The notes under the pieces: model-generated | The model's database searches: none | What the model was told of the DNA's origin: nothing | Seen by the model: the letters and a program-made list of their open reading frames with translations, nothing else | In this document: positions 5,726-22,395 of the stretch, one piece after another | Layout: each line of letters begins with the position of its first letter | How positions within the stretch are numbered: the stretch's first letter is position 1 | Program-made: the position numbers and the translations under genes | Origin: a virus | Virus record (IMG/VR): IMGVR_UViG_3300032073_000172 | Coordinates: 1-28,555 of that record | Length of the DNA: 28,555 nucleotides | Reading direction: 5' to 3' (one strand)

Positions 5726-6103
5726 TTATAGAATCTCTATATGAACCAAATCATCAAATTTATTATCTTTAATTTCACCATCAGAATCCCAATCCCCACC
5801 CCATCTAACATAGTAACCTAGTTGCTTTGCTATTCCTCTTATCATACCACCCATATAATGAAAACGCTCCCTATCTTCCCAATTTATTGGATATGGTGCA
5901 AGGTCTACAGCTTTACCTTCAAGGTGTTTACTATATTTAGTCTTAGTAGCACCCTTTTTAAGTAATTCTTCCTGTCTTTCTGGTGACCTTATGCCTTCAA
6001 TAATAGTAACATCCATTATATCAATAAGTTTATCTAAGACCTCTCTTAATCTAGGATCAATACCTACCATTCTTTGCTTTGACCTGTTCCCAAATTTTGG
6101 CAT
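5726..6103 (-). CDS. Peptidase M15 (VanY / L-alanyl-D-glutamate peptidase type) cell-wall hydrolase, probable endolysin
   Basis: SKHLEGKAVD matches the LAS/M15 zinc-site consensus SxHxxGxAxD. A second His lies in DDLVHIE. 125 aa with no signal peptide. Its ATG shares a base with the upstream stop (TAATG). Confidence 0.85.
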   Translation of the reverse strand: MPKFGNRSKQRMVGIDPRLREVLDKLIDIMDVTIIEGIRSPERQEELLKKGATKTKYSKHLEGKAVDLAPYPINWEDRERFHYMGGMIRGIAKQLGYYVRWGGDWDSDGEIKDNKFDDLVHIEIL

Positions 6104-6712: not shown

Positions 6713-6850
6713 CTATAACTCCCTTTTGATTTTATATCCTAAATAAATAATAGTCATAATAGCCACTAAACATTGTAAGAATAAACTTACCTCTGATAGT
6801 GATAAACCATAATTAAATAAACTTGCAAATGATACTTTTAAACTATCCAT
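6713..6850 (-). CDS. 45-aa single-pass membrane peptide (not in ORF track)
   Basis: Hand translation gives MDSLKVSFASLFNYGLSLSEVSLFLQCLVAIMTIIYLGYKIKREL. Its ATG overlaps the upstream TAA (TAATG at 6852-6848). Its TAG (6715-6713) abuts the next ATG (6712). Confidence 0.6.
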   Translation of the reverse strand: MDSLKVSFASLFNYGLSLSEVSLFLQCLVAIMTIIYLGYKIKREL

Positions 6851-7122
6851 TAAAGATTTTCCTTTAACTCTTCAATATCTTCTAAAATAAATTCCAAAAT
6901 AATATCCTGCCTTACATCAGAAGGTATAGGATCATCCTGTGCATCTTTCATTTCTTTGATATAACTTGCTGTACGCTGACTCTCAACCTCTAAGAATTGT
7001 AATCTAGTGTTTAATTGTCCATAGCCATATACTAACGCACCAATAAACCCAACTGCCTGTATAATCATAGGTAGAGAGATTTTTAAACTACTTGAATCTG
7101 ATATGCCTTTAGGTTCTGGCAT
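6850..7122 (-). CDS. Bitopic membrane protein (TM + acidic helical tail), holin/spanin-class candidate
   Basis: ORF track, 90 aa. TM segment LPMIIQAVGFIGALVYGYG is followed by QLNTRLQFLEVESQ... It shares one base with the upstream stop. Confidence 0.65.
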   Translation of the reverse strand: MPEPKGISDSSSLKISLPMIIQAVGFIGALVYGYGQLNTRLQFLEVESQRTASYIKEMKDAQDDPIPSDVRQDIILEFILEDIEELKENL

Positions 7123-7457
7123 TACTTAGCGTTCCCATTTACTCTACCAGATAAGTAAGATACTTTTTCCTGTAAGTCTGATAGTTCTCTTATAATATCT
7201 TCTCTATGTCTTAAAGATGTATCATCAGATTTATTAAATCTATCTATAAGACGAATAATAATCTGTTTAGCCTCTTCTGTTTCTTTAAGTATCTCATATA
7301 TTTGTTTAGACTGCCCTTGATTTTCTATCTTTAAATCTTCTAATGATTTAGCCTGTTGGCTTGATCTTGTATTCATGCTATATACAAGAAACATAAACAT
7401 CGCTCCAACCACAGCAACCATTCCACCTTCACTATACAATTCCATAAACTCAGTCAT
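7122..7457 (-). CDS. Bitopic membrane protein (N-terminal TM + coiled coil), i-spanin/holin-class candidate
   Basis: ORF track, 111 aa. TM segment GGMVAVVGAMFMFLVYSM is followed by NTRSSQQAKSLEDLKIENQ... and a heptad-like Glu/Lys/Ile/Leu-rich tail. Confidence 0.65.
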   Translation of the reverse strand: MTEFMELYSEGGMVAVVGAMFMFLVYSMNTRSSQQAKSLEDLKIENQGQSKQIYEILKETEEAKQIIIRLIDRFNKSDDTSLRHREDIIRELSDLQEKVSYLSGRVNGNAK

Positions 7458-7502
7458 TTATATCTTAATTCCCTATTAATAAAAAATTCATGTGACACAT
7501 CA

Positions 7503-7790
7503 CTACTTTCGAGATTTACCCCATCTAAGAGGATTGGCTTTTTCGTACCAAGATTCAAGTTTTTCAATCTCTCTCTCATGTTTCTCTTCAAGTTTTTGTA
7601 TACGTTCACTTTGTTGTTCTAATTTTGTTTCTATGGTGTAAAGTTTTTTTTCTATGGTTGTATAAGCAAATATGAGTGATCCAAAGATTGCAAATAGATT
7701 AAGTAAAAATTTAAAATTCAATGTGATTGCCATTGAATCAGAACCTACTACTTCTGCCCTATATGACCTTGCTCCCTTGTTTTTTTCCAT
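7503..7790 (-). CDS. Bitopic membrane protein (TM + coiled coil)
   Basis: ORF track, 95 aa. TM segment FKFLLNLFAIFGSLIFAYTTI is followed by EKKLYTIETKLEQQSERIQKLEEKHEREIEKLE. Its ATG overlaps the upstream TAA (TAATG at 7792-7788). Confidence 0.65.
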   Translation of the reverse strand: MEKNKGARSYRAEVVGSDSMAITLNFKFLLNLFAIFGSLIFAYTTIEKKLYTIETKLEQQSERIQKLEEKHEREIEKLESWYEKANPLRWGKSRK

Positions 7791-7915
7791 TAAACATCTA
7801 ATTCATATTCACAGATGTAAACATCTTCACAGCTAACTGCTGTCGATACTAATAAACAAATAATTCCTATATACACTAATGCCCCTGCTATTCTTATTAA
7901 GGTGTTTTTAATCAT
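7790..7915 (-). CDS. 41-aa lipoprotein-like micro-ORF (not in ORF track), possible o-spanin-like element
   Basis: Hand translation gives MIKNTLIRIAGALVYIGIICLLVSTAVSCEDVYICEYELDV. It has a basic n-region, a hydrophobic core and TAVS|C, which fits the generic lipobox profile. There is an ATGA overlap with the upstream gene and a TAATG overlap with the downstream gene. Confidence 0.5.
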   Translation of the reverse strand: MIKNTLIRIAGALVYIGIICLLVSTAVSCEDVYICEYELDV

Positions 7916-8430
7916 GGTTTGTAATACTTGTAAAAATCTTCTGGGTTTTCTTGATCTACTACAACAAATATAGGTGATACGATTGCATTGCCTGTTCCAG
8001 AACCACCTATAATTGCATACAAGTATTGTCCTTCTTGATAAGGTGACTTAATTGTATCATTATCAAATAGATGTAGAAAGCTAGTATCACTAAATACAGG
8101 CACATAAGTACCATCTAATATTTCATCTACTTCTATTCTACGATTATCATTGTAATCAATAACCTCACCTATGCTTACAGTTCTATGTGGCTGACTTGGG
8201 AACTTACCCATGCCATTCACTTCTACTTGTTGATTGTACCACATCTGAGATGCCTTAACAATCTTCTCAAGGTTTGCCTTAGTCTGTTTAGCTTTAGCTC
8301 CCTCACCGATACGACTAAAAGCAGGAGCAGAGGTAGTTGCCAAAGTAGCCATGATAGCCATAGTAACTGCGAACTCAGCAAGGCTATTACCTTTCTTACT
8401 GCAAATACAATTATAAATACAACTGCACAT
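7912..8430 (-). CDS. Prepilin-like protein (type IV pilin / T2SS GspG-like pseudopilin N-terminus)
   Basis: I place the start at ATG 8430, 1 nt after the upstream TAA, rather than at the track's GTG 8463, which overlaps the upstream gene. The leader MCSCIYNCICSKKG ends in Gly. It is followed by NSLAEFAVTMAIMATLATTSAPAF, with Glu at +5 and about 20 hydrophobic residues. Next comes GAKAKQTKANLEKIVKASQMWYNQQVEVNGMGKFPS, which parallels GspG ...KEKADQQKAVSDIVALENALDMYKLDNNRYPT. Confidence 0.6.
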   Translation of the reverse strand: MCSCIYNCICSKKGNSLAEFAVTMAIMATLATTSAPAFSRIGEGAKAKQTKANLEKIVKASQMWYNQQVEVNGMGKFPSQPHRTVSIGEVIDYNDNRRIEVDEILDGTYVPVFSDTSFLHLFDNDTIKSPYQEGQYLYAIIGGSGTGNAIVSPIFVVVDQENPEDFYKYYKP

Positions 8431-8431
8431 A

Positions 8432-8860
8432 TTACTCAATAGATGAAGTCCACTCACTACCACTTAATACCGACATCACTTGAGCATGGCTTAGTTTATC
8501 GTAAGAACTGAATACGCTAGGATCATTATCTGCATCATTATCACAAGCAAACTTTAGTAGTGCTTTGGTACTATCTCCATCATCTCCATTATTCTTGCGT
8601 AATGTGTCTTTACTTGATTGTATTGCATTAGCAATAAAGGCATTTGATACAGGAATGGCTTGTAATAGGTCTGATTTACTCATATCCGAGGTATATTCAT
8701 AGCCATAGCTATCCATCCATGCTTTTATCTGTGCGATTGTATTTGAGTCTGTAGGAGCATCTGCTGAATCAATATCAGCTACAGGCACAATTAAGTATGC
8801 CCTACCTGCCCATCTACCACTATAGTCATCTGACCATCTGTTTGTTACTTCTTCACTCAT
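8432..8860 (-). CDS. Hypothetical acidic protein, 142 aa
   Basis: ORF track. It follows the giant LamG gene after an 11-nt gap. No motif recognised. Confidence 0.6.
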   Translation of the reverse strand: MSEEVTNRWSDDYSGRWAGRAYLIVPVADIDSADAPTDSNTIAQIKAWMDSYGYEYTSDMSKSDLLQAIPVSNAFIANAIQSSKDTLRKNNGDDGDSTKALLKFACDNDADNDPSVFSSYDKLSHAQVMSVLSGSEWTSSIE

Positions 8861-8871
8861 AATTAATTCCT

Positions 8872-11800
8872 TTAAGGTGTTGTTGTTGAACGATTTGTAT
8901 CACCTTTTGCATAACCATTAGGTTCTGCGTTTGGTGAACTTGCTAAGTCTGATGCCTCTGTATTGGTAGCAGTTCCATGATTACTTTGACCAGAGCGATC
9001 ATATATAGTGCCATTACCGACATCAGATAATCCTGTTGAGGCATCTAATGCTGACATTGCCCAATAGCCTTTTAAATTATCTGAGTAGCTATCAAGTAAG
9101 TTATCATGTCTGCCTAAAGTGTATATTGCACCGACTTCTGTTGCTGAAAGTGCTTTATTATATACTGCAACCTGCCCTATTTGTCCATTTGTATATAATG
9201 AATTATCATTTCTTCTACCAATATTTAAAGCACTATTAGTTATATTTATTGATGTTGATGTATTTACATCCGTTTTTGTACCCTCAACTTCACCATTTAC
9301 ATATAGCTTAAGAGTTGTATTTCCATCATAGGTGACTGCCCCATGATACCAAGTTCCTGTTGCAAAAGTAGTTCCAGAAGTCACTTGAAAATCATTAGCA
9401 CCTATTTGATTGTTCCAAGCAAGTTTATTTGTATTATATACTAAAAAAGTATTTTCTGCTCCACTACTTACAGCACCACTTGATGTTAGAGTTTGATAAG
9501 CGTCTACTGCATCTAAATTAAACCAACACATCATTGTAAAAGCATTAGAACCACTTATTCCAATATTGCTACTTGAGGCAATATATTCATCACTTCCATC
9601 CAAGTCTATGTAGTTATACGCAGAGTTTACCCCTGTGAGAAAGGATTGGTCTGGCAGAACTGAGGAATAGACTAAATCAGCAGAGTCTTGGTTGGTCATT
9701 GTGCCGACATTGCCACTTACTTGCTTTGCAGTAATATTATCAACTTCAAATGTGCAAACATCAGCAGAGGCAAATATACCTAATTGTTGATTTGAACCAA
9801 CTATTATGTAAGCAGTAAAATCTCCATTTGCATCTAAAGTAACAGAAACTTTATTTGCAGTATTTGTTTCATAAACTTTAAAAGATGAACTACTTGCTAT
9901 TGAACCACTTACAATCTGAATATTCCCTGTTACTTGTACAATTCCTGTAATACCACTAAAAGGATTAGTAGTTGTATTAATACCTATGTTTATAGTATTT
10001 CCAGAACTTGAATAAGCAATTCTTGCTTTACCATTATTATAAGTTACATCTGGTGTAGAACTTATATGAGTTTTCCCCCACCCTGTAATATTACTATCAA
10101 ATGTGCCATTAGTAATTAACTCTGCTCCAAGAACAGGCTCATTTACATCGATTATGGCAGGGTAAGAGTCACTTAGGTCTGCTGATTGGAGGACTTCTTT
10201 GACTGAAAAATCATCCATACTAAATGAAGATGATACACTACTTACTAATAACCTAAGTTGAGTATGTGCACTTGTTGGTGTCACATAAAAAGTATGTGTT
10301 CCAACACTATGACTTGCATTAGAAACTAGAGCATCTGCAACACTACCACCATTATAAGTATTAATTGCAAATGTTGCTGTATTGTCATAAATAGTAAAAA
10401 CAAGTTTGTATAATTTATTTAAGGTTAATACAACATCAGAATTGTCTTTTTTAGCATATAAATAAGCAATGCCACTATCTGAATATCTTAACCTACCATC
10501 AGATATAGTAAGTCCAGATAATTGAACTCTCCAATTACTATCATTTGTATCTTCTGATAAATCACTACTGAATGTTGGATCACCAAATCTTTCTGCTCCC
10601 AACTCTTCTGAACTACTCTCAAATGCCCCCATGTCATAACCTGCAACCATTTGCTGTACTATGTCATCTGATGCACCATTTGTAATAGTACCATCGTTTG
10701 AGTTAGAACTTGAATCTGCTATAGTAGGATATGATGCAGATGTGTCATCGCCCATTCTCCAATAACCTTGAAGTCCACTAAGTGAAGATTCATCATAAGT
10801 AATACCTTGCTGATAGATAGCGTAGATTTCATCTGCTGATTTTTCTACATTGTAAACAGAAATGTTAGATATACTACCCTTAAAATACTCACCTCCAGAA
10901 CCTGTCCAACCAATTTTAAATGTAGCTGGTCTTGCAGTTCCATGTCCTTGAGATGCAGTATTATCTAAAACTCCATTTATATAAAACTTTTTATTACTGC
11001 CAGATTGAACCATTGCTACATGAGTCCATACTTCATCTGCTATGGCTGTAGTAGAGCCTACATTGGTACTACCATTCCAACTATAAACTTTATTATCTGC
11101 GGGACTTATATAAAGTTGTACTTCTGTATTTGTACTATCTCTTACTCCAACTATTCCTGCATTAGCAGAATTTGCTGTATCGTGAGAAATCCAACCACTA
11201 ATAGTAAAATCCCCACTTGAAAAATCATGTACATCTACACCGCAATCTATATGGTCATTACTACCATCAAAATCCACTACAGAAAATCTCGAATTTCGTA
11301 CAAAACTAAACCTCGACTTTGCCATCTGTGAAATGGTTTGAGAATCGAGTTGAGTCTTATAAAGAGCAAGATTGGATATTTTACCATTTGCATAAGTAGA
11401 ACTAATTCTTCCAATTTCTAACTCTCCACCTAAATTTTCCATAGCTACATAAGTACCACCACCAGTTAGTGATGTTGATTTTTCAACACCATCTATATAT
11501 AATTTTATACCTGCATTAGCACTTGTTCCACCTACACCATTATATGTAGCACATACATGAAACCAAGAGTTTTGATAGCTTGTTAAAGCAGTATTAAAAT
11601 ATGCACCTTCATAAGTATTATCTACACTTTCATCATATAAACCTAAATATAATTTATCAGAACCATCTAATTGTAATATGTATTCAGCATCTGTATTAAA
11701 AACACCCTTTGATACTATTGTAAAGTTTGTAGCATCAACAGGATTAATCCATGCAGATATACTAAATGGTGTGTCTGATGAACCACTACCAAAAGATAAG

Positions 11801-12687
11801 TCATCGTTATCTGCAACACTCACAAAATGATCCGTACCATCAAAATCAGTATAGAAGTCACTTCTGGCGATTGAGGCATCACTTTCTGGTTCTACCTTAT
11901 CTCCACAGCGTAACCACAATTTAAGGTTGGCTGTTCTGTCTACTCCGTATGATGCTGATTTACTAAGATCAACTATTTTCCCATTATTATAGACAGATGT
12001 GACATCTGAGGCACTTAAAGCAGTATTCCAGACTGCAACTTCGTCAATTAAAGCGTCTAAGTAACTACTACCACTATCAAATCCAATTTGATTAAATGTA
12101 AAACTACCACCAGAAATAGTTTTTGTATCATCAATAGATGTTTTATCAACATATAAATCAACACTACTACCACTCCTAACTAATGCAAAGTGATGCCATT
12201 GATTTTCTAAAACAACACTTGCAGAGCTAAATGTTTCTCCACTAAAACTATTTATTCTTAATAAGAAATCCCCATTATCTCTAAAATACAAAACATAATT
12301 ACCTGCTTTATAAAATAATGGTGCAAATCCTTGAGTTTCATCTGTTACATACATCCACCAAGAAATACTAAAATCTCCAGATACAGCAATATCTTGGTCA
12401 AAAGATAAATAATCATTAGAACCATCTAAATTGAATGAATGGGTTGAACCAAATGCAATCCAATTCTTCCATCTGGTATTGAATGAGCCAGAACCCCCAT
12501 GTTTATGAAAAAGTCTTGTATTTAAACTTGTGCCTGTACCTTCTGCCCAATTCCTCCACTTCGTATTGTTGGAAGTACCAGATGCACCTTCTGAATCTAA
12601 AAAATCCCCTTGATTAGTGTCTAACGATCCACCACTATCATCGTGGTCGTATTGTTCTCTTATCTTACTATTTATACTTTCTGGCAT
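8872..12687 (-). CDS. Giant multi-domain lectin-like virion protein with about four LamG (concanavalin-A-like) repeats and two CBM-like modules, a probable fibre/adhesin
   Basis: ORF track, 1271 aa. LamG-type blocks recur: FDGSNDYLS...FSISWWMY...WHHFALV...LYVD; FDGTDHFVSV...FSISAWIN...WFHVCATY...LYIDG; FDGSNDHIDC...FTISGWIS...WTHVAMV...FYINGV; and LDGSDEYIAS...FTMMCWFN...WYHGAVTY...LYVNGE. Linkers are of the type LQGYWRMGDD and LKGYWAMSA...DRSGQSNHGT. The central ELITNGTFDSNITGWG resembles the start of a carbohydrate-binding module. Confidence 0.75.
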   Translation of the reverse strand: MPESINSKIREQYDHDDSGGSLDTNQGDFLDSEGASGTSNNTKWRNWAEGTGTSLNTRLFHKHGGSGSFNTRWKNWIAFGSTHSFNLDGSNDYLSFDQDIAVSGDFSISWWMYVTDETQGFAPLFYKAGNYVLYFRDNGDFLLRINSFSGETFSSASVVLENQWHHFALVRSGSSVDLYVDKTSIDDTKTISGGSFTFNQIGFDSGSSYLDALIDEVAVWNTALSASDVTSVYNNGKIVDLSKSASYGVDRTANLKLWLRCGDKVEPESDASIARSDFYTDFDGTDHFVSVADNDDLSFGSGSSDTPFSISAWINPVDATNFTIVSKGVFNTDAEYILQLDGSDKLYLGLYDESVDNTYEGAYFNTALTSYQNSWFHVCATYNGVGGTSANAGIKLYIDGVEKSTSLTGGGTYVAMENLGGELEIGRISSTYANGKISNLALYKTQLDSQTISQMAKSRFSFVRNSRFSVVDFDGSNDHIDCGVDVHDFSSGDFTISGWISHDTANSANAGIVGVRDSTNTEVQLYISPADNKVYSWNGSTNVGSTTAIADEVWTHVAMVQSGSNKKFYINGVLDNTASQGHGTARPATFKIGWTGSGGEYFKGSISNISVYNVEKSADEIYAIYQQGITYDESSLSGLQGYWRMGDDTSASYPTIADSSSNSNDGTITNGASDDIVQQMVAGYDMGAFESSSEELGAERFGDPTFSSDLSEDTNDSNWRVQLSGLTISDGRLRYSDSGIAYLYAKKDNSDVVLTLNKLYKLVFTIYDNTATFAINTYNGGSVADALVSNASHSVGTHTFYVTPTSAHTQLRLLVSSVSSSFSMDDFSVKEVLQSADLSDSYPAIIDVNEPVLGAELITNGTFDSNITGWGKTHISSTPDVTYNNGKARIAYSSSGNTINIGINTTTNPFSGITGIVQVTGNIQIVSGSIASSSSFKVYETNTANKVSVTLDANGDFTAYIIVGSNQQLGIFASADVCTFEVDNITAKQVSGNVGTMTNQDSADLVYSSVLPDQSFLTGVNSAYNYIDLDGSDEYIASSSNIGISGSNAFTMMCWFNLDAVDAYQTLTSSGAVSSGAENTFLVYNTNKLAWNNQIGANDFQVTSGTTFATGTWYHGAVTYDGNTTLKLYVNGEVEGTKTDVNTSTSINITNSALNIGRRNDNSLYTNGQIGQVAVYNKALSATEVGAIYTLGRHDNLLDSYSDNLKGYWAMSALDASTGLSDVGNGTIYDRSGQSNHGTATNTEASDLASSPNAEPNGYAKGDTNRSTTTP

Positions 12688-12750: not shown

Positions 12751-13626
12751 TTAAGCTGTGATCTGTGAGATCATTTCAACACCATAGCCATCTATGATTT
12801 CTGTAGAACCACAGAAACTAGATACCACAATGTTAGAGCGTAGGAAAGAACCTTCCCTGTATTCTTCAACTCTCATCATCTCACCTGCGTAACCGAATCC
12901 GATAGCATCCTGTACAAACACACCACCTTTTACAGATGATACAGTACCAGAACTAACAGTTGCAGTAAGCTCTGGTGATGAGTGTATTGCAATACCTGCA
13001 ATCCTAGAAACAAAACCACTTCTAGCACCTTCATCCTGTACACCAGAACCTGCAAACTGAGCCTGTGTAATAAGGTCATTATGAATACCATAAGTACCCC
13101 ATATCTGTCTAGGCTCTAGTACAGCGTTAGGTTGTCCGGGAGCAGAGTTCTGCTTTAGATGTGCAAGACATTGAAATAAGTGATCTACATTAATTGTAGT
13201 TGTTGCACCACCTACAGCATTGCTAAAATTATCGTAGTTAGCATTTACTAACGCATCTAACTTACTAGCCATTGCATTCCCTGCCAATGCACCTGCGTTT
13301 GCATATACATCATCAGCGTTTGATAGTTTAGCCTCATCATAGATAGGTAGCATTACACTATACATATCTAAGGTGATTGTTTTCTTCTCTGAATCCAAAG
13401 CAGTAGATGGGGTTACTGTACCCTCTGCTGTGTTAGCTACATCTGCCGATGTTACCTTATTACTACCTGCGTTATAAGCCATGAATGTAATCTGGTCTGC
13501 TTTTGGTTCACTCTTTTGCTTTACCAAAGGCACAGATACACTTGCCTCACTAAATTTAAGAATAGCCTCTGCCTCAATGACTTCTAATAAGCCACCTGCG
13601 TAATTCCCACTATCTCCTGTTGCCAT
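12751..13626 (-). CDS. Major capsid protein (HK97-fold type inferred)
   Basis: ORF track, 291 aa. It has a strong RBS (ACGGAGTAAATA-ATG) and lies directly after a scaffold-like gene in the terminase-portal-scaffold-capsid order. Composition is typical of capsid proteins. No search was done. Confidence 0.75.
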   Translation of the reverse strand: MATGDSGNYAGGLLEVIEAEAILKFSEASVSVPLVKQKSEPKADQITFMAYNAGSNKVTSADVANTAEGTVTPSTALDSEKKTITLDMYSVMLPIYDEAKLSNADDVYANAGALAGNAMASKLDALVNANYDNFSNAVGGATTTINVDHLFQCLAHLKQNSAPGQPNAVLEPRQIWGTYGIHNDLITQAQFAGSGVQDEGARSGFVSRIAGIAIHSSPELTATVSSGTVSSVKGGVFVQDAIGFGYAGEMMRVEEYREGSFLRSNIVVSSFCGSTEIIDGYGVEMISQITA

Positions 13627-13922
13627 TATTTACTCCGTTTCTCTCCAAATATAGAATCCCATCTATCTTGTGAAATATGAGAGAAGGTTGAACGAATACC
13701 TGTAAAGGGTACTTTTTCATGTCCTACAGACATTCTAAAGCCTTCCTCATAAGGTACTTCTTCATTACCTACCATATAGATATGTTCCTTATCTTTTGTA
13801 ATCGCAGATTTAATATCCCCTTTAAGCTGTAAGCCTGTTGTGGGGTTACTATCTACTGATTCGAGATGTGAACTTTTCTTTGATTTGCTCATAAGTCGTT
13901 TTATCAATCTTTCCAGATACAT
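13626..13922 (-). CDS. Hypothetical head-module protein, 88-98 aa, start uncertain (ATG 13922 or 13892)
   Basis: ORF track. Its stop shares a base with the capsid ATG (TAATG). AAGAGG lies about 11 nt upstream of ATG 13922. It overlaps the end of the scaffold gene by 74 nt (44 nt from the second ATG). Confidence 0.55.
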   Translation of the reverse strand: MYLERLIKRLMSKSKKSSHLESVDSNPTTGLQLKGDIKSAITKDKEHIYMVGNEEVPYEEGFRMSVGHEKVPFTGIRSTFSHISQDRWDSIFGEKRSK

Positions 13923-14409
13923 GGTCTTTTACAGCCTCTTTTAAAGTTGCATAACCTTGCATCCCTGTTGAATCAGATGTTTCTACACTTGGAATATTAT
14001 TTTTAGGTTTTAATATCTTTCCATGAACTGACCTTAGTTGTGCTAAAGTAAGTTCCTTAAACTCTTCCCTATCATCTTCTGGGAAGTCTGAAAGCAGTTT
14101 CTCTTTCTCTGCTGTGCGTTCAGCTTTATACTGATCCACTACAGGAGTTAATTCACTAAGCTGTTTAGCTCTTTCTTCAGCGAGGGTTTTCCATTCTTCA
14201 TTTTCCTCTAGCTGTTTCTGCCTCTCAACTTCTTGAATCTTCTCAAGTTCAGCAATCTTAGATTCTGCCTTCTGTAATCGTTCTTTCTTTTGCATTACTT
14301 CCTGCAATAGTTCAGACTCACGATCACTTATATTGTCTGCACTACTCTGGCTTTCAGTAGCCAACTCTTGTACACTCTCTTGTACTATCTCTTCCATTGT
14401 TTCCTCCAT
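13849..14409 (-). CDS. Scaffolding protein (putative)
   Basis: ORF track, 186 aa, Glu/Lys/Gln/Leu-rich with an acidic coiled-coil character. It lies immediately upstream of the capsid region. Confidence 0.65.
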   Translation of the reverse strand: MEETMEEIVQESVQELATESQSSADNISDRESELLQEVMQKKERLQKAESKIAELEKIQEVERQKQLEENEEWKTLAEERAKQLSELTPVVDQYKAERTAEKEKLLSDFPEDDREEFKELTLAQLRSVHGKILKPKNNIPSVETSDSTGMQGYATLKEAVKDHVSGKIDKTTYEQIKEKFTSRISR

Positions 14410-20125: not shown

Positions 20126-20976
20126 GCATTTCCTCCCATTATCTGATTAAGTGTTTCTTCTGTGTAATCCTTACCTTCATACTTTTGTGGCTTTTCTGGT
20201 ACAAATTCAACCCCACAACATACACTACTAAAGTTTAGTTCTTTTTGCTCTAAAAACATTGTATCACCACACTTAGAACAATAACCCCTATACATACCGG
20301 ATGGCATTATTCTAAATTGTTTCTTTTGTTTTATAGGCTGATGTGCAGTCTTAATAATATCATCATTCCATCGTTCACCATTAAGCCAAACATTTAACGC
20401 AGGTGTAAACTGAGCATCTGTTTCTTTCCAATTATTTAAAACTTGGTTTTTAAATGCCTTGTAGATTGTTTCGTGGTTTTCTTTTTTAACTACTAGTAGA
20501 TATTTCTGATAGGATTTCTTTTTATTAACTTTCTTAGGTACTAATTGCCAAAGTTTTTCAAACTCTTGAACATATATATTATTATTAATCTTCTTAGTCT
20601 TATTGTTTAGTGTTCGTTTGTTGTTCAGTTGTTGTTCACTTTGCTGTTCATCTAGTTGGTAGTCTGACCACCTAAGTATTGATATTAAGCGACATCGAGG
20701 GTTTGTCTGTTGTTCAATTTGTTGTTCGATTTCAAAGGTTTTTAAAATTCGTTGTATTTTACTCTCATTAATTTTTAACTCTTTTGATATAATCTTTCTA
20801 CCTGTAATAAACTGCCCTGCTTTTAGTGTTATTCTTTCACCTTCATATATTGTATCATGGTCTGAATGGGTAGCATTTAACAGTAACCACATCCAGACAG
20901 CTAAATGGTCTGTGTCTTTCATAACTATTGGATTATCCAAAGTTTTACGATGTAGTTTTATCCAACCATTACTCAT
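20122..20976 (-). CDS. Replication initiator/organiser (winged-helix N-domain, C-terminal Cys cluster)
   Basis: The N-terminus WIKLHRKTLDNPIVMKD...AVWMWLLLNA...LKAGQFITGRKIISKELKINESKIQRILKTFE matches the common phage replication-protein wHTH pattern. The central EQQ-repeat linker is encoded by iterons. The C-terminus has CSKCGD...CCG. Confidence 0.7.
   Translation of the reverse strand: MSNGWIKLHRKTLDNPIVMKDTDHLAVWMWLLLNATHSDHDTIYEGERITLKAGQFITGRKIISKELKINESKIQRILKTFEIEQQIEQQTNPRCRLISILRWSDYQLDEQQSEQQLNNKRTLNNKTKKINNNIYVQEFEKLWQLVPKKVNKKKSYQKYLLVVKKENHETIYKAFKNQVLNNWKETDAQFTPALNVWLNGERWNDDIIKTAHQPIKQKKQFRIMPSGMYRGYCSKCGDTMFLEQKELNFSSVCCGVEFVPEKPQKYEGKDYTEETLNQIMGGNA
20608..20730. repeat. 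Iteron array inside the replication gene (candidate origin)
   Basis: There are six copies of TG(y)TGTTC(A/G), with the TGTTC core at 20611, 20622, 20633 and 20645 (spacing 11, 11, 12 bp) and at 20711 and 20723 (spacing 12 bp). About 60 bp separates the two clusters. Confidence 0.6.
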
Positions 20977-21602
20977 TACTTATTTTCCAAAATCTCATAA
21001 AATAGTTCTGGTGGTATCTTAGATTTTTCATAAGCGTTCTTTAAGCCTTGTGTACCTGTTTGACTTCCTCTTGGTGCAGGTTGATGATGACAATCTCTAT
21101 TACCATTATGACATGGGTTTCTTGGAATCCAATTAAGATCATTAGTCCAGATGTCTGTAGGTTTTGCTCTATGGTCATTACCTTTAGGATTAGAATATTT
21201 ACAATACCATATAGTATTTCTTTTCTCTGTTCTATTCATTATACTTAGTTTTCTTAGCTTACCTCTAGGATTTTCAATATAATAATATTTAGGTTTTAAT
21301 ACTTCAATAATAAGTATAGTCCTTCTAATTATATGTAAACCTAATTTAGCTTGTTCTGTTTTAGGTGTGTGGTCTTTATTCCAATGCTTACCTATACTAG
21401 CTACACTAAAAAAGGTACAGGGTGGACTTGCCCAGATAATATCTGGTCTATAAGGTAATTTATAAGGATTAAAATCTAATATATCACATACTACATCTAT
21501 CTTATCAAATGGTTCTGAATCAGTAGTATATACATTATGACCTAACTCTTCAGCTACCTTACTAAATGACCTTGATCCTGCAAATAATTCTAATGTATTC
21601 AT
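20976..21602 (-). CDS. Compact DNA (cytosine-5) methyltransferase-like protein, 208 aa
   Basis: Motif I-like is LELFAGSRSF, motif IV is WASPPCTFFS (catalytic PC), and motif VI-like is YYIENPRG. The C-terminal KIPPELFYEI resembles motif X. There is very little room for a target-recognition domain. Confidence 0.75.
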   Translation of the reverse strand: MNTLELFAGSRSFSKVAEELGHNVYTTDSEPFDKIDVVCDILDFNPYKLPYRPDIIWASPPCTFFSVASIGKHWNKDHTPKTEQAKLGLHIIRRTILIIEVLKPKYYYIENPRGKLRKLSIMNRTEKRNTIWYCKYSNPKGNDHRAKPTDIWTNDLNWIPRNPCHNGNRDCHHQPAPRGSQTGTQGLKNAYEKSKIPPELFYEILENK

Positions 21603-22054
21603 TTTATATAAGATTCCCTGTATATACTCATATTTCTACCATATACAAACAAATAATGTTTTTTAACCAAGTAAGCTATCTTACTAGCATAGTCACCCTT
21701 ACCTACAAATTCAACAGGTGTAAGTCTTTCTCTGTGGATCATATCCCTTATCTGGTCTGGTTTAATAAAGATAAATTCTTCATCATCTAAGTGAAATACC
21801 CACCAATCTGCTTTAGTAGTGCTTAATGCTGATAATTTGCCATTCATTTGTATTTCTACAACCACATTACCTGTATGTTGTGATTTAAAGTCTTTCTTAA
21901 CTTCCACAGATGTATCTATTTCGGGTATAAATATGTCATATTCTTTAAAATATCCATCTTTAATATAAGCATTAGGGTATTTATGTTTTATGCGATTTAA
22001 AACGATTTTTTCAGATTTCTTACCTACTACTAAAGACTCTTGAAAACTACTCAC
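21599..22054 (-). CDS. PD-(D/E)XK-type nuclease (putative)
   Basis: GKKSE(15)...YD(40)IFIPEIDTSVE(51)VK(53)KD fits the E...D...ExK core with normal spacing. 151 aa. Its stop overlaps the methyltransferase start (ATGA at 21602-21599). Confidence 0.5.
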   Translation of the reverse strand: MSSFQESLVVGKKSEKIVLNRIKHKYPNAYIKDGYFKEYDIFIPEIDTSVEVKKDFKSQHTGNVVVEIQMNGKLSALSTTKADWWVFHLDDEEFIFIKPDQIRDMIHRERLTPVEFVGKGDYASKIAYLVKKHYLFVYGRNMSIYRESYIK

Positions 22055-22395
22055 TTTAAACCCTCGATTATATTATCAAAATCTGCATCTATGAATTTTT
22101 GTGGTGTGTTCTTTTTTATTTTAAGGTCATTATACCAATCATCGCCTCTTTTTTCTATTGCCCACTCTACAAACTCAGCAGGTGTTTTATGTGCAGAAAA
22201 TTTAGAACTAAATACATGACAACCTACACATAGACAGAATCCATTATCTATATCCCATCTAACTACTCTAATACTCCTAGAATAAAAATGATGTGCGTTT
22301 AAAGGTTTATTTTTACCACAAACCTCACACATCCCAAACTGCTTGATTCTATTCGACCAAGCAGTATCTAACTTCTTAATAAGGGTTCGTTTCAT
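22051..22395 (-). CDS. NinG/Rap-like Cys/His zinc-binding nuclease (putative)
   Basis: CEVCGKNKPLNAHHFYSRS...RWDIDNGFCLCVGCH resembles, from memory, the lambda NinG family core. There is a 4-nt overlap downstream and a 1-nt overlap upstream. Confidence 0.5.
   Translation of the reverse strand: MKRTLIKKLDTAWSNRIKQFGMCEVCGKNKPLNAHHFYSRSIRVVRWDIDNGFCLCVGCHVFSSKFSAHKTPAEFVEWAIEKRGDDWYNDLKIKKNTPQKFIDADFDNIIEGLK

Follow-up and report, generated by a model that had tools for sequence, protein, structure and literature searches.

Why a tailed phage should carry the gene of a pilin is the question raised by the viral record IMGVR_UViG_3300032073_000172, of which the whole stretch of 28,555 nucleotides (positions 1 to 28,555, hereafter the window) was analysed. 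The gene concerned is a prepilin gene on the minus strand, flanked by fibre-like genes on one side and by a putative lysis cassette on the other. To judge from sequence comparisons, its product is a phage-encoded prepilin that is homologous over its whole length, and not at the N-terminus alone, to cellular pilins encoded in type IV pilus clusters. On balance, and with some reserve, we lean to the explanation that it is a type IV pilin, taken over by one lineage of marine tailed phages from their probable host, Marinimicrobia, and then streamlined, which would enter the host pili and alter or block them. The coordinates of the gene, its parts and its neighbours are collected in Table 1.

The precursor begins with MCSCIYNCICSKKG followed by NSLAEFAVTMAIMATLATTSAPAFS. 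The class III signal that a sequence-only reading of the window had recognised here is borne out: a leader ending in Gly14, the motif NSLAEF with glutamate at mature position +5 (E19), a hydrophobic, Ala/Thr-rich stretch (FAVTMAIMATLATTSAPAF) up to Pro(+22)-Ala-Phe(+24) and an amphipathic helix are all present, and they are conserved in the alignment of 36 family members, which shows no substitution at G14, N15, F20 and P36 and a single one at E19 (Asp in one member). Type IVa pilins, PAK PilA for example, conserve Glu5, Leu16-Ala17, Pro22 and an aromatic residue at position 24. The phage protein resembles the type IVa major pilins (PilA/PilE, MshA, Geobacter PilA-N) in these positions, in its short basic leader ending in glycine, in an N-terminal helix of about 55 residues and at the level of sequence profiles; it differs from them by Ala instead of Gly at position 14, by the absence of a disulfide-bounded D-region from the mature protein, and by its first mature residue and a head with no significant Foldseek match, both of which are weighed below. 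Removal of the leader by a host prepilin peptidase is predicted to take place after Gly14. None of the other open reading frames (ORFs) of the window has a class III-like motif.

The gene starts with an ATG at position 8430, one base past the TAA that ends the 142-aa gene before it; the close relatives L035 and L037 show the same junction. A GTG at 8463 is also in frame; translation from there would add 11 aa to the leader, but this start would run into the upstream gene. Leaders differ in length and sequence across the family; they are rich in K, R and N and mostly 7-10 aa long (e.g. MNGLGNRG). The four cysteines of the present leader, which the sequence-only reading had listed as a trait of the protein, turn out to belong to an 11-aa insertion of a single subclade (window 8398-8430, minus strand) and are not a feature of the family.

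The insertion deserves an observation of its own. It follows the pattern CxCI[YF]xC[IT]C, is conserved within its subclade and was likewise seen in the leaders of loci L040, L075 and L083 (examples are MCSCIYNCICS and KCACIFFCICN). Because it is positioned downstream of the start codon in that subclade, it is translated. Four cysteines in a leader that would be cytoplasmic and later cleaved off have no obvious explanation.

The profile built from the family matches solved type IV pilins in the PDB in register (hmmsearch), with Geobacter PilA-N (Geopilin) at E 2.9e-5, MshA at 1.1e-3 and PilA at 6.9e-3. Aligned by hhalign to 13 pilins positive for N_methyl, the family reaches a probability of 93.9% and E 1.7e-7 over 143 columns, in register with the G/FTLIEL pilins (the slash here and below marks the expected cleavage site). 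Scans of the single sequence with Pfam, PHROGs and NCBIfam yielded sub-threshold matches at most; those to PilA_Myxo, ComGE and a ppd protein were in register, though weak. With the family alignment as input, AlphaFold2 predicts a single helix from residue 16 to 72 and, after it, short helices and three or four strands. The predicted local distance difference test (pLDDT) is 79, and confidence is low only in the leader and the membrane segment. The model of residues 43-172 alone has a pLDDT of 92.5 and a predicted template modelling score (pTM) of 0.86.

The strongest evidence comes from the genomic surroundings of the cellular homologues. The scan covered 185,579 species-representative genomes, one per species, in which 34 genome loci carry full-length homologues in one to five tandem copies. 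These share 27-46% identity with the phage protein overall, most of them 27-39% over its whole length, and the best aligned segment reaches 60% at most. Nearly all lineage-named records among the 34 loci are metagenome-assembled or single-cell genomes of Candidatus Neomarinimicrobia/Marinimicrobia (SAR406), a phylum of which we know no cultured members and no phages. The genes pilD-pilB-pilR-pilC lie directly upstream of the homologues wherever the loci reach, with all four present in 16 loci. The order downstream recurs as well: where sequence exists, one to five pilins of the "GNSLAEF" (GNS) class are followed by 1-15 pilins of the "GFTLIEL" (GFT) class, and further on by minor pilins, a LamG protein of 550-633 aa, an AAA_22 (MshM/ExeA-like) protein and PilO. 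On the 583-kb contig L005, for example, a prepilin peptidase (A24_N_bact and Peptidase_A24) is succeeded by a T2SSE ATPase with an MshEN domain, a sigma54 activator, a T2SSF platform protein, an Mrr-like nuclease and then the homologue, a GNS-class pilin of 221 aa (L005 9956-10621) with the leader ...KSISG/NSLAEFAVT; behind it come two more "GNSLAEF" pilins and fifteen canonical "G/FTLIEL" pilins.

As the 34 loci match no scanned gene of the window besides the pilin and the LamG protein, and so show no homologues of TerL, portal or capsid, we regard them as cellular pilus loci and not as prophages. In appearance the host system is a type IV pilus of the Pil/MSHA type, not a type II secretion system (T2SS) or a Tad system, and Marinimicrobia (SAR406) are the probable host. 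The gene would in this way link a group of uncultured marine phages to this phylum, which is a testable host assignment.

The host loci are unusual in themselves, with tandem arrays of two pilin classes that comprise up to 18 genes. The array at L005 9956-20116 holds three "GNSLAEF" and 15 "GFTLIEL" pilins, and two-class arrays also occur in L008, L013, L014, L020, L021 and L024. A GNS pilin of 252 aa is exactly duplicated in the L005 array (10875-11633 and 13357-14115). The pattern looks as if it had arisen in an arms race with phages that target pili. The arrays could be a pilin-variation cassette under pressure from phages, or be due in part to artefacts of assembly. In one Marinimicrobia lineage, a gene with an Mrr_cat restriction-endonuclease domain is inserted between pilC and the first pilin (L005 8737-9747, and the clade of L006, L007, L008, L011, L012 and L016). 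The same bacterial type IV pilus locus was found on two contigs filed under other lineages, L024 (PAYZ01000004.1, a "Methanobacteriota archaeon" metagenome-assembled genome) and L027 (DEBM01000053.1, Balneolaceae), both of which are probably mis-binned.

The phage family is large and marine. Among 5.8 billion proteins 281 relatives (protein clusters) were found, nearly all of them in marine metagenomes (Tara, JGI, ENA), and the scan of IMG/VR recovered 199 viral contigs with a family member; 80 of these contigs were fetched. Near-identical DNA was sought among cultured phages with no match, and when the protein was compared by tblastn with 50,697 phage records, two matches alone appeared, at E 0.4. 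In a neighbour-joining tree with the host pilins the phage sequences form one clade. The pairwise ratio of nonsynonymous to synonymous substitutions (dN/dS) is 0.11 for the whole gene, indicative of purifying selection, and is about 0.08 outside mature residues 71-100, compared with 0.20 within them. Positive selection in this variable region was considered and rejected, the region-averaged ratio being raised yet below 1.

Two minor observations concern the same sequences. In the alpha1-N codons (window 8314-8388, minus strand; 66 phage sequences) dS is 0.49 compared with about 1.1 in the rest of the gene, which suggests nucleotide-level constraint or recombination in this segment. Two members of the 50%-identity library, P0134 (477 aa) and P0165 (368 aa), show three matched stretches each, apparently multiple pilin-like repeats, which could be fusions or unsplit tandem genes.

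Comparison of the phage version with the host version shows which parts were maintained. The alpha1-N segment (mature 1-25), which forms the filament core, has a mean identity of 76% to the GNS-type pilins of Marinimicrobia, and up to 88%; identity is 33-34% in the rest of the helix, 15% in residues 76-110 and 41% in the C-terminal domain (mature 111-158). Both versions start with NSLAEFA and share the C-terminal motifs SPYQxGxY, GxG, SPI and DxE. About 50 extra residues, inserted after positions 82, 88 and 99, are present between mature 82 and 99 in 33 of 33 host sequences, some of which have two further short insertions. Most host proteins contain two cysteines, the mature phage proteins none. 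The mature cellular pilins measure 198-243 aa, whereas each of the 80 phage loci (59 distinct sequences) encodes a mature pilin of exactly 158 aa. Since the assembly interface and the conserved core were kept and the exposed loops were dropped, we interpret the phage protein as a minimised subunit.

The phage genes around the pilin offer nothing with which it could be processed or assembled. All substantial ORFs of the window are on the minus strand. They include, in order, genes for a DnaD-like protein, TerL (35% identical to the TerL of a MAR10-like Vibrio siphophage), a probable portal of 440 aa that matches no PHROG, a protease-like protein, an HK97-type capsid and the 1271-aa LamG protein; then come the 142-aa gene, the pilin and a 41-aa hydrophobic ORF, and after them three transmembrane (TM) coiled-coil proteins, small membrane proteins, an M15 endolysin, a metallophosphoesterase and a possible tail tube. 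The order from the pilin through the TM coiled-coil genes to the endolysin is kept in most of the 80 loci, the upstream side being variable. The genes pilD, pilB, pilC and pilR were sought within 10 kb on either side of the pilin in these loci and none was found, nor was a second pilin; the GNSLAEF pilins of Marinimicrobia, by contrast, are one to five tandem paralogues adjoining pilC. Because the phage loci have no peptidase, ATPase or platform genes, the phage pilin must rely on host machinery. Judged purely by its position and orientation, the gene may belong to a late operon, as the sequence-only reading had it; a scan for promoters and terminators around it gave the same counts as shuffled sequence.

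The pilin is not indispensable to the phages that carry its neighbours. Through the 111-aa neighbour, 35 more distant phage loci were found, a sister group of marine contigs (L115-L149) with 47-61% identity in this protein, which possess the module of TM coiled-coil proteins and M15 endolysin. No pilin was detected in them by hmmsearch at E<=10, at least a dozen of them having 2-4 kb of upstream sequence, and in L128 and L129 a homologue of the 142-aa gene directly precedes the XhlA-like gene, so that the pilin slot is empty. As these related loci keep the module without the pilin, the pilin is an accessory (moron-like) gene and not required for lysis. Its site, at the boundary of structural and lysis genes, is a typical moron position.

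The mechanism that we propose would run as follows. The pilin gene is probably co-transcribed with the flanking fibre-like and lysis genes, and the precursor would insert into the inner membrane by means of its class III signal. A host prepilin peptidase of the PilD type would then cut the leader, the phage encoding none, and the mature subunit would enter the PilB/PilC assembly pathway of the host, because its polymerisation helix is nearly identical to that of the GNSLAEF-class host pilins. Without the loop residues and the cysteines, the subunit would either co-polymerise, which would alter the pilus surface, or stall assembly. The pay-off would be that pilus-binding phages, the phage's own progeny included, cease to adsorb to the infected or lysing cell, that is, receptor masking or superinfection exclusion.

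Interference of phages with host pili is known in other forms. Tip of phage D3112 and Aqs1 of DMS3 are reportedly small cytoplasmic proteins that target PilB and are not pilin homologues; their outcome, a pilus receptor lost or altered, is possibly the same as that of the phage pilin. To our knowledge, phage-borne pilins were first described and experimentally shown in 2025-2026, in small genome sets, and the principle as such is already known. The prophage protein P-FimU takes the place of host FimU and keeps tip-binding phages out; virulent phages, too, have PilA-like genes (PMC12952977). The present protein resembles P-FimU and the PilA-like proteins of Pseudomonas and Xylella phages (Sztanko et al., Cell Rep 2026, PMC12952977) in that a phage-borne homologue of a host pilus subunit retains the N-terminal assembly helix and differs in its exposed parts, is not accompanied by assembly machinery in the phage, occurs in apparently non-temperate phages, and may serve receptor mimicry or masking against pilus-binding phages, as was proposed for those proteins. 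It is distinguished from P-FimU by its probable host, an uncultured member of the Marinimicrobia/SAR406 (FCB group), by belonging to a divergent pilin class (G/NSLAEF, Asn at +1) below the N_methyl thresholds, and by the fixed place of its gene where the lysis cassette begins; the effect was shown for P-FimU and is here proposed from sequence. P-FimU moreover gains loops relative to the host protein, whereas the present protein has lost about 50 loop residues. The deletion of loops, instead of their addition, is a design different from that of known phage pilins.

The second precedent is the archaeal virus SNJ2 of Natrinema, in which provirus pilins hijack the host machinery and PilA1/PilA2 form the dominant filaments, which are the receptor for a second virus (PMC12426801). 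Like the present protein, PilA1/PilA2 (Xiang et al., Cell Rep 2025, PMC12426801) are viral pilins dependent on the peptidase and assembly machinery of the host; unlike it, they belong to an archaeal temperate provirus and not to a tailed bacteriophage with no sign of lysogeny in the scanned ORFs. With 199 IMG/VR contigs and 281 protein clusters, the pilin strategy appears common in the open ocean, and the family provides a second, larger natural example. Novel points are the size of the family, its occurrence in the sea, the uncultured host phylum, the divergent G/N class, the loop-deleted design and the fixed adjacency to lysis genes. Among the functions that the sequence-only reading had offered for the gene, interference with host pili by superinfection exclusion is the best supported, with experimental precedents in PMC12952977.

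Several points weigh against this explanation. Exclusion functions are often expressed early, but this gene, placed where the lysis cassette begins, looks late. That pili are a receptor for this phage or its competitors is presumed here, and the GNSLAEF-class pilins of the host may be major or minor subunits. For the host assignment the two lines of evidence are pilin homology and a similar G+C content; the window contains no tRNA as a further clue, and neither prophage copies and phage contigs nor relatives of TerL (in prophages or infected single cells) were found in the 185,579 genomes. The first mature residue is Asn, where Phe or Met is usual. The single sequence scores 12.6 bits against Pfam N_methyl (PF07963), in register, at a cut-off of 21.2 (E 0.1), and has no hit to TIGR02532; cellular GNS-class homologues likewise remain below the cut-offs of both profiles. 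The long helix and the beta-rich head are predicted, but Foldseek found no significant match to a solved pilin with the full model (against PDB and BFVD) or with the head-only model (against PDB). Against PDB no match reached E<1, and the pseudopilins EpsI, XcpV/W and EpsG and C. difficile PilW appeared at E 4-9. As nothing significant was returned, the head fold cannot be confirmed as the alpha-beta roll of a pilin head.

The main competing explanation is that the phage specifies functional pili from which phage or host benefits, through attachment, uptake of DNA or nutrients, or as a receptor for another virus, the gene being an auxiliary fitness gene. We consider this unlikely, although it deserves attention. 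The evidence for assembly competence (conservation in the family, profiles, identity of the helix) fits it equally well, the SNJ2 provirus is a precedent (PMC12426801), and the strong purifying selection on the whole head, together with a length that is always 158 aa, speaks for a surface domain that is folded and functional, not for a mere plug. It is opposed by the lack of an integrase or other sign of lysogeny among the scanned window ORFs (part of the ORFs were scanned, and the window is less than the whole genome), by the same absence of prophage copies from the species-representative genomes, and by the consideration that a lytic phage which expresses the gene beside its lysis cassette leaves little time for any benefit that depends on pili. 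The virulent-looking siphovirus of the sequence-only reading is accordingly a tentative description, given a TerL at 35% identity to that of a Vibrio siphophage and no integrase among the ORFs scanned.

A role in lysis is improbable in our view. The pilin could be a releasable protein of the signal-anchor-release (SAR) or pinholin kind, as the sequence-only reading had considered for its Ala/Thr-rich segment, or a periplasm-spanning partner of the TM coiled-coil proteins and the M15 endolysin, and the order of pilin, XhlA-like, TM coiled-coil, small TM and M15 endolysin genes in most of the 80 loci would accord with this. The 35 related loci, however, keep the module without the pilin. The weakly hydrophobic, Ala/Thr-rich helix is common to the cellular pilin homologues, and both it and the C-terminal domain were inherited from the pilins of cellular type IV pilus loci; an enzymatic or catalytic domain is missing. 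The interpretation as a SAR or lysis protein was rejected mainly on account of the related loci. A variant that we rate as quite improbable combines pilus and lysis: expressed late, the subunit would be polymerised by host PilB/PilC into a short pseudopilus which jams open or breaches the outer-membrane pilus channel, or strips the dying cell of pili, and so serves virus release. If true, the phage would drive lysis or egress by hijacking the type IV pilus machine of an uncultured ocean bacterium that is abundant worldwide.

The sequence-only reading had named a GspG-like pseudopilin and had pointed to TadE/Flp. The prepilin part of this assignment stands, by the family profile and the cellular type IV pilus loci; the remainder, a T2SS major pseudopilin or a Tad pseudopilin that acts on a secretion system or a Tad pilus, is very improbable. 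A few relatives were automatically labelled PulG by JGI, the motif G/xxxxEF resembles that of Tad proteins, and a canonical pilin from the same host locus scores weakly on TIGR01710 (E 1.5e-10, below the cut-off). But other JGI labels in the family are PilE or FimT, and the phage protein has no match to T2SSG or TIGR01710, and none to TadE or Flp at E<=10. The host peptidase (A24_N_bact and Peptidase_A24) has PilD architecture and the ATPase carries MshEN; the loci include PilO, more than one minor pilin and arrays of as many as 18 pilin paralogues, and no GspC/L/M or TadA/B/C match was found among the ORFs scanned in L001 and L005. That the protein is a virion component such as a fibre accessory with an incidentally pilin-like N-terminus is scarcely credible: it is encoded two genes past the 1271-aa fibre-like protein (with the 142-aa gene in between), on the same strand downstream of the head genes, but it is homologous to cellular pilins over its full length, matches no PHROG structural family and is absent from related phages, and a membrane-inserted, peptidase-processed protein is unlikely in a virion.

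Table 1. The prepilin gene, its parts and neighbouring genes in the 28,555-nucleotide window
Feature	Position	Strand	Residues, product or motifs	Evidence and occurrence
Prepilin gene	7912..8430 (stop included)	minus	172-aa precursor, 158-aa mature protein	ORF list, family alignment, profiles
Leader MCSCIYNCICSKKG	8389..8430	minus	basic; ends in invariant Gly(-1) = Gly14, ...SKKG	
alpha1-N assembly helix	8314..8388	minus	mature 1-25, NSLAEFAVTMAIMATLATTSAPAFS; Glu+5, Leu16-Ala17, Pro22, Phe24	
alpha1-C amphipathic helix	8215..8313	minus	residues 40-72	AlphaFold2; helix 2-30 of the truncated model, pLDDT >90
Variable surface region	8089..8178	minus	mature 71-100	top column entropy; site of the extra host residues
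C-terminal beta-rich head	7915..8088	minus	motifs SPYQxGxY, GGSGTG, SPI, DxE, common to host pilins	strands at pLDDT >90
LamG-repeat virion/fibre-like protein	8872..12687	minus	1271 aa	phrog_8510, virion structural protein, E 6.3e-41; upstream of pilin in 41/80 loci
Upstream gene	8432..8860	minus	142 aa	phrog_12526, unknown function; upstream of pilin in 14/80 loci
Small hydrophobic ORF	7790..7915	minus	41 aa; overlaps pilin stop (ATGA)	subclade of the window only; homologue in 1/80 loci
Protein with one TM segment and coiled coil	7503..7790	minus	95 aa; first conserved gene past the pilin	Pfam XhlA, E 7e-4, below threshold; syntenic in 54/80 loci
Protein with TM segment and coiled coil	7122..7457	minus	111 aa	syntenic in 71/80 pilin loci; also in 35 pilin-free loci
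Endolysin, Peptidase_M15_4	5726..6103	minus	end of the putative lysis cassette	phrog_465, E 6.9e-39; Pfam 29.3 bits at a cut-off of 25

The neighbourhood of the pilin holds further features that do not bear on its identity. A run of small membrane proteins occupies window positions 6713-7915 (minus strand), between pilin and endolysin. It consists of the 41-aa ORF, which has a lipobox-like ...AVSC, of the TM coiled-coil proteins of 95, 111 and 90 aa (with weak matches to XhlA, Rz-like proteins and DUF6744), and of a 45-aa TM protein. In appearance the run is a holin/spanin set, though one that is unusual for a host of the FCB group.

The 1271-aa LamG protein of the phage is weakly similar to the LamG domain of the 550-633-aa protein of the host pilus loci (25-34% identity, E 1e-5 to 4e-9). 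The host proteins are encoded just past the minor pilins (L014 6574-8475, with equivalents in L008, L010, L017, L019, L022, L024, L025 and L029) and may be pilus tip proteins or adhesins; the likeness may also be simply generic to LamG domains. In the early region of the window, a short ORF at 20976-21602 (minus strand) has a partial match to C-5 cytosine DNA methylases (E 4e-5), and an HNH-like ORF is located at 22051-22395 on the same strand.

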